From contig JBBCGK010000001.1 in assembly GCA_037200965.1 (NCBI GenBank), positions 544,001 to 608,000 on the forward strand: DNA of 64,000 bases, read 5' to 3'. Below are positions 38,547 to 44,446 of this stretch, in pieces. The stretch's first letter is position 1. Every line of letters starts with the position of its first letter. A model generated the notes under the pieces. That model worked only from the letters and a program-made list of their open reading frames with translations. It was not told the DNA's origin and did not search any database. The translations under genes were made by a program, and so were the position numbers. The DNA comes from a bacterium (lineage in GTDB: Bacteria; Patescibacteriota; Minisyncoccia; Phycocordibacterales; Phycocordibacteraceae).

Positions 38547-38840
38547 TTAGAAACTCCGGCGCTTTAACGCGCGAAGCAGGTCCGGCCCGTATCCCTGGCT
38601 TCGATGCCGCAGAACCAGGACGATCAGTTCGTCTTTTTTGCACCGGCGGATGGCCCGCCAGTCTCCGACCCGGAGGGAGCGATAGTCCGAAAGCGGGTAC
38701 CCGAGAGGCTTCCCGGGAAGCGCCATGCGCGCATACTGCTGTTCGATAGACGTATGTACGCACTTCCATACCGAAGCGTCGAGACTCCGCGCGTCTTTGG
38801 CAATAACCTCGCTATGATAGCTAACGCGCCACGCGCTCAT
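38547..38840 (-). CDS. RelE/ParE-family type II toxin (ATG at 38840; ORF-track extension to 38927 unlikely)
   Basis: C-terminal PLSDYRSLRVGDWRAIRRCKKDELIVLVLRHRSQGY matches the RelE/ParE core; start overlaps antitoxin stop by 20 nt. Confidence 0.7.
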   Translation of the reverse strand: MSAWRVSYHSEVIAKDARSLDASVWKCVHTSIEQQYARMALPGKPLGYPLSDYRSLRVGDWRAIRRCKKDELIVLVLRHRSQGYGPDLLRALKRRSF

Positions 38841-39102
38841 CGTGCAATTTGCGCCAGAGCGCGTCTGCCTCGCCCGCGCTGAGGTATTTCGTGCCCGGGG
38901 CGGTACGTTCCTTGAGCATCTTCGCAAGCGCCCGCTGCTCTTTCGGCGTTATATATTCGAATTCTTCTTCCGCAATAGCCGCGTCAAGCATTCTGGCGGC
39001 GATGGTGGCGCGCGGAGTCCGTTCCCGCTTGGCGCGAAGGGAGAGCGCCCGCGCGGTCGACGGCGCGAGTGTCACCAGCATGCGCTCCTTGGTTGTCGCC
39101 AT
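38821..39102 (-). CDS. Ribbon-helix-helix (CopG/ParD-like) antitoxin
   Basis: 93-aa protein, N-terminal MLVTLAPSTARALSLRAKRERTPRATIAARML beta-strand plus helix RHH pattern; immediately upstream of toxin. Confidence 0.55.
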   Translation of the reverse strand: MATTKERMLVTLAPSTARALSLRAKRERTPRATIAARMLDAAIAEEEFEYITPKEQRALAKMLKERTAPGTKYLSAGEADALWRKLHDERVAR

Positions 39103-39145: not shown

Positions 39146-42139
39146 TCACGCCTCGATGATACGTTCCTGTCCGGAATGTCTCATGAGCGCGGGATCGATG
39201 TCGTGCAAGAAGTTCGACGGCTCGGTGATAAAGTCGGCGCCGTAGATGCGGCGGATGCGTGCGAGCGTAAGCACGAGGCGTTTTTTCGCGCGCGTCATCG
39301 CGACATAGAAGAGGCGCCGCTCCTCTTCGTCGTCGTCTTCCTCGTTGCGCTCGTGCGGGAACAACCCTTCTTCAAGTCCGCTTACGAACACCAGATCGAA
39401 CTCGAGTCCTTTCGCCGCGTGCACCGTCATGAGCGTAACGCCCGTCTTCCCTTCAACGCGGTCGAGCTCGTCCTGGTCTCCCGCAAGAGCCGCGTCCGCA
39501 AGGAACGCCGCGATGCCTCCCCGCCCCGGAGTATCGTCGTAGCGCGTCGCCAGAGTAGCGAGCTCCTGGATGTTCTCGAAGCGTTCCTTCTCTTCTTCGT
39601 TTCCGTGCTCGAGTTCGGCCTTAAGCCCGCTCTTCTCGACGACGAGCCGCACGAACTCCGAAGGTGCCGCGCTTTCGGCGCTTCGCGAAAGTTCCCCGAC
39701 TATCGCTTCGAACGCCGCGACTTTCGCCTTCTCGCCCGCCCGGAGCTCGTCGCGCTTTCCTGCCGAAAGTTTCCCGAGCGTCGTCTTGCCGATGCCGCGC
39801 GTTGGCGCCTGCACCGCGCGCATCCGGTCCGCTTCGCGCGAGGGTTCAAGCGAAAGACGCACCCACGCGAGTACGTCTTTCACCTCCTTGCGGTCGTAGA
39901 ACCTCGTACCTAAGAGCTTGTACGAAATCCCTTCGGCAAGGAACGCCTCCTCGAGCGCGCGGGACTGGAAGTTAGTGCGAAACAGAACCGCGATTTCTTC
40001 CGGTGCCGTGCCGTTTCGTATCACGCGTCCCGTCTCGTGCGCGATCCAACGCGCTTCGTCTTCCGCGTTGTCCGCGACGTGGAGCGTGATCGGATCGCCA
40101 GGTGCGTTTTCCGTAACCGAGCGCTTTTCTTTCCGGCGCCGGTTTTTTTCGATCACGGCGTTCGCCGCGGAAACGATCGTCGCCGTCGATCGGTAGTTAT
40201 GCTCGAGCATGATGGTTTTCGCGCTCGGGTAGGTTTCGTCAAACGCGAGCAGGTTGTCTATCGTCGCGCCGCGCCAGCTATAGATGCAATTGTGCGTCGC
40301 GATGCCATTCGCGACGAAATTGTGTGTGCCTTCAATGTCGATGTCGTATACCCGCACTTTCCTTGCGGGGACGCGTTCAACCTTATCTACAAGGTCGTAT
40401 CCTCCCTCGGAATCAAAGACCGCCATGCCCGGCCGTACGCTTGCGGCGGGAAGGAGCGGAAGCGAATTCCCGTCCCTGAGCCTCGCCTTTTTCCCGCCAA
40501 GCCGTGCCGCACGCACGATGCTCGCGCTTGGAAACGCGACGCGAAGGCGTTCGACGCTTTCAAGCAGTGCCCCGTAACTCTTATGGGCGGATTCGAATCG
40601 CCAGCTGGCAGATCCTTTCTTTGCCGGACGCACGGAGAATCCGGCCTTTCGTAAAAGGATGCTGCCTTCCTCGTCGCTACCCACCACCGATATCCTGTGC
40701 ATTGTTGTTTCCCCGCGCCGGTCGCCGCACAACGTTATGTTGATGTTTCGCCGGTCGCTCCGGGTCGCCTGCGCGCGGTGGTGCGGATGCGCAGGAGAAA
40801 GGAAGAGGTCGTCCATAAGTTTCTTCGCACCGGACTCAGTATCGAAAGAAGCGAAGACGGAATCGATCGTTCCTTGATCATGAACGTATCCTCCGGTGCC
40901 GCTCCCCTTGCGCGCGACAAACGGGAGCGTCGGGATACCATATGAAAGGGACAGCTTGTATTCCATCACCCGTGCTGCCCGGGAAGTATCGTGTGTCCCG
41001 AGAACCCACACCGCGTCTCCGTGCTCCTGGTTGCAGCGCTGCTGGAATCCGGCCATAGCCAGGCGCTGTCCGTTCGTATAGGCGCGCGAAACGCCGAGCC
41101 GCCAGCCGACACCGTTTTTTGCCATGAGATACGTAAAATAAAGTTGCGGCATGAGTCCGAGCCGATATCCGGCGAAATGCACGTGTTCTGGCGTGCTCGT
41201 GAGGATCCGTCCCGCGGCCGTGGTTATGCGCACCAATGTGCCAGAGTGCGTCCGCTGCTTAGCGCGAATAACGCGCGCGGCGCGCGTATCGCCGCTTCCG
41301 TAGTTCGACCGAACCTCGTCGCCTATTCGTATCTTCTCGATGTTCCTTTCGGAACCGTCGGCCATTGCCACTTTCGTCCCGGCGACAAGGCATTGATCGA
41401 TATCTCCGACCACAAATACGTTCCCGTGCCGCCTGGAAAGCATGCCGACGAGCGTTCCTTGAAGCGCGTTCGTATCCTGAAACTCGTCAATGTGGAGATA
41501 GTCCCAGCGCTCCTGCGCGAGCGCACGTACGTCCTCATGCTCGCGCAGGAGCCGTACCGGAAGCGAGATGAGATCGTCGAAGTCGAGCGCTTTCTCTTCC
41601 CTCAGCGTTTTCTCATAGCGCAGCCACGCTTCGGCGACGATACGCCCCCCGAAGCTTTTGCGGCCATGCTCGGCATAGAAGCTCTCCGCGGTTTCTCCCG
41701 CTCCCTTGGCCTTCGATATGCGCGACAACACCGCTCTTGGCGAAAGTTCCTTCGTGTCGACATCAAGTTCCTTGAGAGCCTTGCCGATCGCTTTCTGGGA
41801 GTCGTCCCGGTCGAAGATGGTGAAGTGCCTCGGCACGCCGATCTTTGCGCCGTACGACTCGAGAAGCTCGCGGCCGAGCCCGTGGAATGTGGCGATGAAA
41901 GGCGGCCGGCCGCCGTGAAGAAGCCTTGAAAGCCGCTCGCGCATCTCGCGCGCGGCTTTGTTGGTAAAGGTGACGGCGAGGATCTTCTCGGCGGGCACCC
42001 CCTCCTTTATAAGGTGGTAAATCCGGGTGGTAAGCACCTTCGTTTTCCCCGATCCTGCCCCGGCAAGCACCGATACCGGGCCGGCGGTCGCGAGAACCGC
42101 CGCTTTTTGGGCGTCATTAAGGTCTTCGAGGTGGTTCAC
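39146..42139 (-). CDS. uvrD: UvrD/PcrA-family ATP-dependent DNA helicase, interrupted by an in-frame intein (GTG start)
   Basis: Motif I AGAGSGKT, motif II IDEFQD, motif III split as VVGDIDQ / CIYSWRGA around the intein, C-terminal motifs VHAAKGLEFD and YVAMTRAK; 997 aa including 368-aa insertion. Confidence 0.9.
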   Translation of the reverse strand: MNHLEDLNDAQKAAVLATAGPVSVLAGAGSGKTKVLTTRIYHLIKEGVPAEKILAVTFTNKAAREMRERLSRLLHGGRPPFIATFHGLGRELLESYGAKIGVPRHFTIFDRDDSQKAIGKALKELDVDTKELSPRAVLSRISKAKGAGETAESFYAEHGRKSFGGRIVAEAWLRYEKTLREEKALDFDDLISLPVRLLREHEDVRALAQERWDYLHIDEFQDTNALQGTLVGMLSRRHGNVFVVGDIDQCLVAGTKVAMADGSERNIEKIRIGDEVRSNYGSGDTRAARVIRAKQRTHSGTLVRITTAAGRILTSTPEHVHFAGYRLGLMPQLYFTYLMAKNGVGWRLGVSRAYTNGQRLAMAGFQQRCNQEHGDAVWVLGTHDTSRAARVMEYKLSLSYGIPTLPFVARKGSGTGGYVHDQGTIDSVFASFDTESGAKKLMDDLFLSPAHPHHRAQATRSDRRNINITLCGDRRGETTMHRISVVGSDEEGSILLRKAGFSVRPAKKGSASWRFESAHKSYGALLESVERLRVAFPSASIVRAARLGGKKARLRDGNSLPLLPAASVRPGMAVFDSEGGYDLVDKVERVPARKVRVYDIDIEGTHNFVANGIATHNCIYSWRGATIDNLLAFDETYPSAKTIMLEHNYRSTATIVSAANAVIEKNRRRKEKRSVTENAPGDPITLHVADNAEDEARWIAHETGRVIRNGTAPEEIAVLFRTNFQSRALEEAFLAEGISYKLLGTRFYDRKEVKDVLAWVRLSLEPSREADRMRAVQAPTRGIGKTTLGKLSAGKRDELRAGEKAKVAAFEAIVGELSRSAESAAPSEFVRLVVEKSGLKAELEHGNEEEKERFENIQELATLATRYDDTPGRGGIAAFLADAALAGDQDELDRVEGKTGVTLMTVHAAKGLEFDLVFVSGLEEGLFPHERNEEDDDEEERRLFYVAMTRAKKRLVLTLARIRRIYGADFITEPSNFLHDIDPALMRHSGQERIIEA
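40289..41392 (-). other. Intein (Hint domain, 368 aa) inserted in helicase motif III of UvrD
   Basis: Starts with Cys in block A CLVAGTKVAMADG, ends block G VYDIDIEGTHNFVANGIATHN followed by +1 Cys; extein junction reconstitutes GDIDQ-CIYSWRGA; central 200 aa may be a degenerate endonuclease domain. Confidence 0.75.
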
Positions 42140-43495: not shown

Positions 43496-44446
43496 TATCG
43501 CACTAACATATCGAACACTCTTGCAGTCGAGCATACGGCGTCTTGAGCTCGATGCCAAGGTGCGGCCGTTCGTGGTTGTATTCGCGCAGAAAGGCCTGAT
43601 ACTGGGCATTGAGGTCCTCCATTGAAGCGGGCTTTTTCATGAAGCGCCAGAAGAACTCCTCCTCGTCGGTGCGGAATGACCGCTCGATGACCGCGTTCTC
43701 ATTCGGGTTCGCCTTGTGGATGAAATGATGCTTCCAGCCGAGTTCCCCAGTCACGAAGGCGCGGAAGCGGCTCTGGAACTCAAGGCCGTTGTCGGTCTGC
43801 ACGAAATCCGGTACGAACGGCAGCGAAACCGTCCGCAGGGCCTCGATGGAGAAGTCCTGCACGAGCTCGGGGAAGATGACGCCAGCTTTGTATCGGCTCC
43901 AAATATCAATGACGGCATACAGATACAGGGTATGCGGGAGCCCCGACAGCTCGGGCGTCACGTACTTCACATCCATCTGAAGCTTCCCGGGCGCGGTCAC
44001 GTTCTTGAGATACATATGCGTGGTCTCCTGATATCTCGGCCGTCGGTATGACGCGCCTTCCAGTATATGACCTTTCGCTTTGAGGAAGCGATGGATGGTC
44101 GCCGGGTGCTCGGAGAGGCCGAGCAGCACTTTGAGCTTGCGCGCCCCGTATCCTTTCTCTTCGCGCAGGCGCAAGAGCGCCTCAGCCCGCTCTCCCGAGA
44201 GCGTCCTGCGGCGAAGACGCTTCGGTCTTGTCGACTTGCGGACAAGCTGCCGCGTCGAGAGCGCAAACCGGCTCCGGATGCTCCGGGCTCGCTTCTTCCA
44301 GAACACCACCGTGCCCGGAGATATGCCGAGTGTCCGTGCGGTTTCGCGCACCTTTCCTCCCGACTTCTTCAATTTCCTGATGATTTCCCTGGGTTCTTTG
44401 CGCATATCCTCCTTAGTATTAGGGAGTGTTCGATATGCAGTGCGAC
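43496..44446 (-). mobile_element. IS481-family-like insertion sequence (about 951 bp) with terminal inverted repeats and 5-bp target duplication
   Basis: IRs TCGCACTAACATATCGAACACTC (43498-43520) and reverse complement of 44423-44445 (21/23 identical); direct repeat CTTAA at 43491-43495 and 44447-44451; single DDE transposase inside. Confidence 0.7.
43503..44405 (-). CDS. DDE transposase (HTH + rve integrase core), IS481-like
   Basis: N-terminal HTH ETARTLGISPGTVVFWKK; DDE core DVKYV...LYLYAVIDIWSRY...VQTDNGLEFQS...ANPNENAVIERSF. Confidence 0.8.
   Translation of the reverse strand: MRKEPREIIRKLKKSGGKVRETARTLGISPGTVVFWKKRARSIRSRFALSTRQLVRKSTRPKRLRRRTLSGERAEALLRLREEKGYGARKLKVLLGLSEHPATIHRFLKAKGHILEGASYRRPRYQETTHMYLKNVTAPGKLQMDVKYVTPELSGLPHTLYLYAVIDIWSRYKAGVIFPELVQDFSIEALRTVSLPFVPDFVQTDNGLEFQSRFRAFVTGELGWKHHFIHKANPNENAVIERSFRTDEEEFFWRFMKKPASMEDLNAQYQAFLREYNHERPHLGIELKTPYARLQECSIC

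Follow-up and report, generated by a model that had tools for sequence, protein, structure and literature searches.

UvrD/PcrA is among the top 15 intein-bearing bacterial proteins, and 16 UvrD inteins have been counted in five phyla (Novikova et al. 2016, PMC4760082). Bifunctional inteins with LAGLIDADG (PI-SceI, PI-PfuI, PI-MtuI) or HNH endonucleases carry a Hint splicing domain that is split between block B and block F, and are presumed to splice, to cut the empty allele and to home. GIY-YIG enzymes were not found in inteins in a 2006 survey (PMC1564403), a 2025 survey of inteins from actinobacteriophages names no enzyme types besides LAGLIDADG, HNH, VSR-like and endonuclease-VII-like (bioRxiv 10.1101/2025.01.02.630785), and the in-frame intein endonucleases in the literature searched are LAGLIDADG or, rarely, HNH enzymes. 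Here, we analysed a 64,000-nucleotide window of a Patescibacteriota genome of the candidate phyla radiation (CPR; contig JBBCGK010000001.1, positions 544,001 to 608,000), in which the helicase gene uvrD/pcrA is interrupted by a 368-amino-acid intein with the same split-Hint architecture and the same presumed life cycle. We put the probability at roughly 0.55 that this element is, as a whole, a class-1 intein placed within helicase motif III, after Gln249 and before the +1 residue, and equipped with a homing endonuclease of the GIY-YIG type.

The phi92-like coliphage PaulScherrer contains a UvrD intein (bas60_0082, MZ501100; annotated in its record as an intein of 347 amino acids) at the same motif III codon (GD..Q^C...HN^C/S, with carets marking the splice junctions). 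This phage intein shares the class-1 chemistry, and its middle domain is homologous to that of the window copy (28.7% identity over 87% of the domain). Compared with known UvrD inteins, the window copy is distinguished by its occurrence in a CPR genome and by a Cys at position +1 where empty CPR alleles have Thr. The intein itself, its UvrD host site and the phage copies annotated as inteins are already known. The new element is a conserved, probably GIY-YIG-derived module between the Hint halves that escaped annotation and likely constitutes a new homing-endonuclease type, a finding of modest novelty; no account of this type of middle domain was found in the open-access literature searched.

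The host gene and its three parts are organized as follows:

39146–42139, minus strand: uvrD/pcrA precursor gene of 997 amino acids plus stop, interrupted by the intein (from the open reading frame (ORF), Pfam and TIGR01073)
41393–42139, minus strand: N-extein, amino acids 1–249, ending in VVGDIDQ, the first half of motif III of this superfamily 1 (SF1) helicase (placed by end-to-end alignment with intein-less orthologues)
40289–41392, minus strand: intein of 368 amino acids with the class-1 signature Cys1, T67-x-x-H70 in block B, D350 and H357 in block F, and terminal H367-N368
39146–40288, minus strand: C-extein, amino acids 618–997, beginning with Cys+1 (codon 40286–40288) in CIYSWRGA, the second half of motif III

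The flanks of the 997-amino-acid ORF match the Pfam families UvrD-helicase (PF00580, E 1.2e-71) and UvrD_C (PF13361, E 7e-69). TIGR01073 (pcrA) of NCBIfam matches the ORF in two stretches separated by the insertion (E 9.5e-185), and the NCBIfam matches to PcrA, UvrD and Rep all break at residues ~250 and ~617. With both helicase domains and the two halves of motif III (GDIDQ and CIYSWRGA; family form GDxxQ-[ST]IYxxRGA), the host gene belongs to the SF1 UvrD/PcrA/Rep helicases. The intein comprises 368 codons without a single stop, running on the minus strand from CLVAGTKVAMADGSERNIEKIRIGDEV to VYDIDIEGTHNFVANGIATHN; it is preceded by ...NVFVVGDIDQ and followed downstream by CIYSWRGATIDN, with the C-extein restarting as CIYSWRGA. 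Read on the plus strand, this stretch is riddled with stop codons. The original prediction gave the coordinates and all quoted strings of this intein exactly and left only the strand, which is minus, unstated. The guanine-plus-cytosine (GC) content is 0.593 in the intein and 0.609 in the exteins, and at third codon positions (GC3) 0.663 and 0.741, respectively, a gap too small to argue for a recent foreign origin. The pipeline label of the gene is merely 'UvrD-helicase domain-containing protein'; it is a normal uvrD/pcrA whose product would require splicing.

The 368-amino-acid insertion is almost certainly a genuine class-1 intein. Its splicing domain is encoded in two separated parts:

41162–41392, minus strand: N-terminal half of the Hint splicing domain, intein amino acids 1–77
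40289–40495, minus strand: C-terminal half of the Hint domain, amino acids 300–368, ending in THN (PF14890, TIGR01443, phmmer against PDB sequences)

Three hidden Markov models (HMMs) match above their curated cut-offs, namely TIGR01443 (intein_Cterm, 33.3 versus 15.6 bits), TIGR01445 (intein_Nterm, 26.0 versus 24.5 bits) and PF14890 (Intein_splicing, 40.8 versus 35.8 bits). Furthermore, the C-terminal block matches the RecA, DnaX, RadA, CDC21 and gp41-1 inteins in a phmmer search of PDB sequences, and the intein has a Hint fold, its AlphaFold2 (AF2) model reaching a predicted local distance difference test score (pLDDT) of 93.6 and a predicted template modelling score (pTM) of 0.90. Conservation was assessed in 86 sequences that span the whole intein, down to 32% identity to the query. 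The block A nucleophile Cys1 is invariant in these full-length members, the block B motif T67-P-E-H70 is conserved at 97% (T67) and 100% (H70), and all 86 end in His-Asn, followed at +1 by Ser in 72 and by Cys in 14. Splicing itself is suggested by the intact catalytic residues together with the need of the helicase for an uninterrupted motif III.

Close relatives carry the empty allele. Searching with the spliced extein sequence retrieves PcrA-annotated proteins of 629 amino acids that are 81–86% identical over their full length, with Paceibacterota, Parcubacteria and Patescibacteria as the named close relatives carrying orthologues, which places the host in the CPR. The orthologues P0262, P0263 and P0265 (81–86% identical) read VVGDIDQ^TIYTWRGA, and all five orthologues inspected at the junction lack the insertion. 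One intein-less locus (L001, a 64-kilobase (kb) contig with an 86%-identical orthologue) is syntenic with the window, with a LysM/M23 peptidase gene upstream of uvrD and ksgA and a TSP3-repeat protein gene downstream, and its empty uvrD site consists of GTGGTCGGCGACATCGATCAA directly joined to ACTATTTACACCTGGCGTGGTGCG. At the DNA level, GATCAA is followed immediately by ACTATTTAC in the empty allele, and by the intein and then TGCATCTAT in the window. The +1 codon is TGC (Cys) in the window (40286–40288) and in 12 of 13 other intein-bearing CPR alleles, versus ACT (Thr) in the empty CPR allele examined as DNA (L001, 6748–6750), a difference at all three nucleotide positions; the other empty alleles checked likewise have Thr at +1, and occupied alleles outside the CPR have mostly Ser. 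As empty and occupied alleles differ in this codon, it may have come with the intein or may have been selected later. Among the 120 closest CPR orthologues listed, nearly all have the length expected without an intein, and the intein is present in 13 further, more distant CPR genomes in a single-protein scan that reached only close relatives.

A lineage-specific insertion domain of the ordinary kind, retained in the mature helicase, is a highly improbable alternative, in favour of which we found no evidence. The claim of an intein, made from the sequence alone in the original prediction, is borne out by Hint matches above curated cut-offs, by a terminal HN and a +1 nucleophile in every full-length member, and by orthologous uvrD genes of close relatives that lack the insertion at exactly the same codon of a syntenic locus.

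The window intein belongs to a large family. A word-indexed search yielded 245 relatives, and an exhaustive phmmer search of 1.84 billion cluster representatives returned 667 that match the middle domain at E<=0.001, each standing for a cluster at 50% identity. The insertion codon is identical in 86 of 86 full-length inteins (GDxxQ^[SC][IVL][YF]xxRGA), and the family spans many bacterial phyla as well as phi92-like coliphages. Ten hosts with unusual coordinates were tested, of which seven, including all long ones, are UvrD-type SF1 helicases and three short ones are fragments. Many database relatives on long contigs (P0007, P0011, P0019, P0034 and others) either run into Arg/Pro-rich nonsense a short way past the intein or begin within it, and seem to reflect frameshifts or gene-calling errors in metagenome assemblies of high GC content and not real split genes. 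No match in that search of relatives is longer than 644 amino acids, though relatives of ~1,000 amino acids exist in another library.

Between the Hint halves lie ~235 amino acids (residues ~78–310) without any match in Pfam, NCBIfam or PHROGs. This region is well ordered in the AF2 model and is divided by its predicted secondary structure into three parts:

40916–41155, minus strand: sub-domain 1, intein amino acids 80–159, of beta-beta-alpha-beta-alpha order, GIY-YIG-like, the putative nuclease catalytic module
40760–40915, minus strand: sub-domain 2, amino acids 160–211, with a conserved PTLPF loop, two helices and the invariant P203-H204 ('HPHH')
40496–40759, minus strand: sub-domain 3, amino acids 212–299, basic, of beta-beta-alpha-beta-alpha-beta order (LCGDRRG...MHRI...SVRPAK.GS.SWR.E), presumably a DNA-binding or anchoring domain

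The central region is functional, being conserved like the splicing domain and under purifying selection. Y88, R98, G100 and P203 are conserved at 100%, and M90, G96, R119, E123, D126, W129, E144, H204, H232 and R265 at 96% or more, with most of these residues forming the sub-domain 1 motif Y88-L-M ... G96-[WFY]-R98-x-G100 ... R119-x3-E123-x2-D126-x2-W129 ... E144. The window copy carries the majority residue at every position conserved at 90% or more. Mean pairwise identity is 0.402 in sub-domain 1 versus 0.399 in the Hint domain. In DNA from 18 genomes, the ratio of nonsynonymous to synonymous differences per site (pN/pS) in sub-domain 1 is 0.12–0.26 and does not exceed the Hint value in seven of eight pairs; ratios are given as pN/pS instead of dN/dS since synonymous sites are near saturation, with synonymous divergence (dS) above 1.1 in all available pairs. 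Conservation and pN/pS rule out a degenerate middle region. The original prediction had offered a degenerate or a novel homing-endonuclease domain here; the first option is thereby set aside, and the second, with a probable GIY-YIG derivation, is the better reading.

Other nuclease classes were considered for the insert. No LAGLIDADG motif and no LAGLIDADG or Hom_end match was found in the insert with Pfam, NCBIfam or PHROGs, nor at E<=10 in a Pfam search with the intein or with the insert alone as query, and PF05203 matches Hint residues 1–35 only. An HNH or His-Me finger motif or HMM match is likewise absent from the insert in the same three databases, even at E<=10 for HNH, in agreement with the earlier statement that the middle region has no LAGLIDADG or HNH signature. 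A match to the Pfam family TY-Chap3 (E 0.004–0.012, below the cut-off) was dismissed, having no other support. Some phage inteins have their homing endonuclease encoded antisense or in a different frame; this arrangement was also rejected here: the plus-strand ORFs of 312, 205 and 82 amino acids have no Pfam match, and long plus-strand ORFs across the intein are expected by chance at 60% GC.

Weak but converging lines of sequence comparison suggest that sub-domain 1 is probably a divergent nuclease fold of the GIY-YIG type with atypical catalytic residues. Its predicted order of strands and helices is compatible with the GIY-YIG core, a three-stranded sheet with flanking helices. A profile of amino acids 78–200 built from 61 members has the GIY-YIG domain of UvrC (1yd6) as its top match among all PDB sequences (E 0.62), and when the 61 members are scanned singly against Pfam, GIY-YIG (PF01541) and one other family jointly match the most members, with a best E of 0.023 among the 3 of 61 that match PF01541. 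In hhalign, the sub-domain 1 profile aligns with a 44-sequence profile of the UvrC N-domain over 70 collinear columns (score 30.2, P 1.3e-4, probability 54%). As controls, the reversed UvrC profile scored 9.8, 30 column-shuffled UvrC profiles at most 18.9, UvrC against T4 Seg/I-Tev, a genuine GIY-YIG pair, 16.9, and sub-domain 3 against UvrC 12.0. In addition, Foldseek against viral models gave weak matches to T4-type GIY-YIG homing endonucleases (E 0.05–0.3). Sub-domain 3 returned noise alone, both as a profile against PDB sequences and in a Pfam scan of 47 members, and has no detectable relatives; this result doubles as a negative control for the sub-domain 1 tests.

In the hhalign alignment, Y88 corresponds to Y19 of Bacillus caldotenax UvrC, the GIY tyrosine, G100 to G32, and the invariant R98 to Y30, the YIG tyrosine; the residue preceding R98 is W, F or Y. 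E144, conserved at 97%, aligns with the Glu of 'EALILE' in UvrC; in the T4 Seg/I-TevI profile, it aligns with the corresponding Glu helix. This UvrC Glu is a metal ligand, as Truglio and colleagues are said to have reported in 2005. The catalytic R40 in helix 1 of UvrC falls on a variable loop of the intein alignment, and the invariant R98 and R119 could substitute for it spatially. Sub-domain 1 resembles the GIY-YIG superfamily (UvrC N-domain 1yd6, SLX1, I-TevI, T4 Seg) in the strand-1 Tyr, the Gly after strand 2 and the Glu in the helix after strand 3, and seemingly in its predicted core; the intein is also modular like I-TevI, with the putative DNA-binding domain set apart. Unlike these enzymes, sub-domain 1 has an invariant Arg in place of the YIG Tyr, no conserved counterparts of the helix-1 Arg/Tyr and of the Asn, an additional conserved R119-E123-D126 helix, an in-frame intein setting and matches that stay below the Pfam threshold.

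Several of these observations weigh against a GIY-YIG assignment. Only two canonical residues, the GIY Tyr and the Glu, have counterparts in the hhalign alignment, the YIG Tyr being replaced by Arg, and a conserved counterpart of the Asn was identified neither there nor from conservation. The query itself has no PF01541 match, the Pfam and hhalign values given above are modest, and each GIY-YIG test taken singly is below the conventional significance threshold. Furthermore, an HMM search of T4 ORFs, which has little power, ranks GIY-YIG genes 4th, 18th and 25th of 561. The comparison of sub-domain 1 with a nine-sequence Seg/I-Tev alignment (hhalign score 17.3, best of 30 shuffles 17.1) is uninformative rather than negative, because the true pair UvrC–Seg scores just 16.9. 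The likeness could also come from a generic small alpha/beta sandwich with chance motif similarity, and the intein would then carry a homing endonuclease of a fold unrelated to GIY-YIG, whose catalysis might sit elsewhere, for example around the cluster of invariant P203-H204, H232 and C222-D224. We regard this as unlikely, as six independent weak tests all favour GIY-YIG and no other nuclease class, a genuine pair within the superfamily scores lower in hhalign when run identically, and the sub-domain 3 profile gives noise alone. Strict membership is not established, and the best name for the module is GIY-YIG-like with an atypical active site.

The module also occurs in phages and in a second, unrelated intein. 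A tblastn search of 50,697 phage records with the middle domain matched 54, most of them phi92-like or Justusliebigvirus coliphages with the match inside the UvrD helicase. Four 146-kb 'Campylobacter phage' records (MG065639, MG065645, MG065656, MG065689) do not differ in match or identity from phi92-like coliphages of equal size, and their Campylobacter host labels look doubtful. Fifteen Streptococcus phage records match sub-domains 1 and 2 only; the four listed are all Streptococcus suis phages and have the match inside an adenine methyltransferase that holds a separate intein (WQHEP^CQPAG...GIVTHN^CLYGW). This methyltransferase intein retains the core residues TYLM, RWRVG, R...E, W and E, followed by YPLIH. 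In Streptococcus phage Javan558, the homologous module of sub-domains 1 and 2 (27% identity, E 7e-4) likewise lies within a C...THN^C intein, which differs from the window intein in host gene, insertion site and length (285 amino acids) and has no visible likeness to sub-domain 3 after YPLIH. The Javan558 methyltransferase gene (L003, 1367–3478) and its intein (CQPAG...GIVTHN^C) stand in a record that does not annotate the intein as such. Structural searches of BFVD matched a Myoviridae methyltransferase (E 8e-8) and a phage helicase (E 3e-8).

Sequence divergence bears on mobility in two ways. Between phyla, the intein is 50–58% identical, versus 40–45% for the exteins. Within the CPR the two are about equal (64–69% for the intein versus 65–74% for the exteins), and intein and extein divergence correlate (Spearman 0.89); the near equality within the CPR counts against a homing element, fitting long vertical residence as well. 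Shortened inteins of 236–278 amino acids occupy the same UvrD site in P0060, P0064, P0072, P0076 and P0101. They have lost precisely amino acids ~78–200, which hold the GIY-YIG-like module and the helices, and keep HPHH (in at least one) and sub-domain 3 with its conserved residues (LCGDRRG...MHRI...SWR.E). The conservation of sub-domain 3 after the loss of sub-domain 1 is a further point against a homing endonuclease as the only function, as it is unexpected if serving the nuclease were its sole role; sub-domain 3 may have a role beyond it.

In a different explanation, the central domain is no nuclease: it would bind DNA or protein or act in regulation and be kept by host selection, for example by making helicase maturation conditional, or it would be a structural scaffold for the Hint halves, and the intein would be immobile, vertically inherited and occasionally lost with precision. 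The parallel divergence of intein and extein and the persistence of sub-domain 3 favour this view, the canonical catalytic residues are incomplete, and an endonuclease that is purely selfish would not usually be under such strong purifying selection, seen here over synonymous distances at saturation. However, a homologous module resides in the unrelated intein of a phage methyltransferase and in phage UvrD inteins, the intein exceeds its host gene in similarity between phyla, its distribution among close relatives is sporadic, and independent deletions of just this module resemble the decay phase of a homing cycle. Taken together, we judge a non-nuclease central domain improbable. The overall pattern is what a homing cycle would leave behind, with gain, fixation, decay and loss of the intein, and is no proof of current activity.

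Under the interpretation as a homing intein, the 997-amino-acid precursor would be translated, and the Hint domain would then excise itself. An N–S acyl shift at Cys1 would be followed by trans-thioesterification to Cys+1, cyclisation of Asn368 and an S–N shift, with Cys1, T67/H70, D350/H357, H367-N368 and Cys+1 as the predicted splicing residues. The products would be a 629-amino-acid helicase with motif III restored as GDIDQ-CIYSWRGA and a free intein of 368 amino acids. The steps of homing, that is binding and cleavage, are suggested by the anatomy of the middle domain and by its distribution: the motif III DNA of an intein-less uvrD would be bound by sub-domain 3, probably with the help of the Hint surface, and cut by sub-domain 1 by means of Y88, E144 with a metal ion, and R98/R119. 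Cuts made by GIY-YIG enzymes typically have 3' overhangs of 2 nucleotides. The intein would finally be copied into the empty allele by recombinational repair, with the occupied allele as the template.

We tentatively propose, at somewhat less than even odds, that the module represents an unrecognised class of intein-borne homing endonucleases, derived from GIY-YIG enzymes with a re-wired active site (Tyr...Arg-x-Gly...Arg/Glu/Asp...Glu), which would serve at least two unrelated pairs of intein and target, namely UvrD motif III and an adenine methyltransferase of phages, and extend over many phyla, the CPR and coliphages. If true, inteins would contain GIY-YIG enzymes after all, contrary to what has been reported, and sequence-specific nucleases would gain a compact new scaffold. 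A GIY-YIG derivation would also widen the endonuclease repertoire of inteins and provide a testable case of a nuclease module shared between inteins with different targets. Members of the family are present in culturable Escherichia coli phages (phi92 and the BASEL phages PaulScherrer and JohannJBalmer), which makes homing and cleavage directly testable.

Two further loci in the window concern neighbours of uvrD. Adjoining the LysM/M23 peptidase gene is an ORF of 300 amino acids (43503–44405, minus strand) that resembles an integrase/transposase of insertion sequence (IS) elements, with a helix-turn-helix (HTH) N-terminus and a DDE-like core; the syntenic stretch of the intein-less locus L001 has no gene at this position. 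In L001, uvrD and ksgA overlap with nothing in between. The window contains between these two genes (38547–39102, minus strand) a 93-amino-acid ORF resembling a ribbon-helix-helix antitoxin and a 126-amino-acid ORF with a weak ParE_toxin match (E 0.001, below the cut-off), which together look like an inserted toxin-antitoxin pair.

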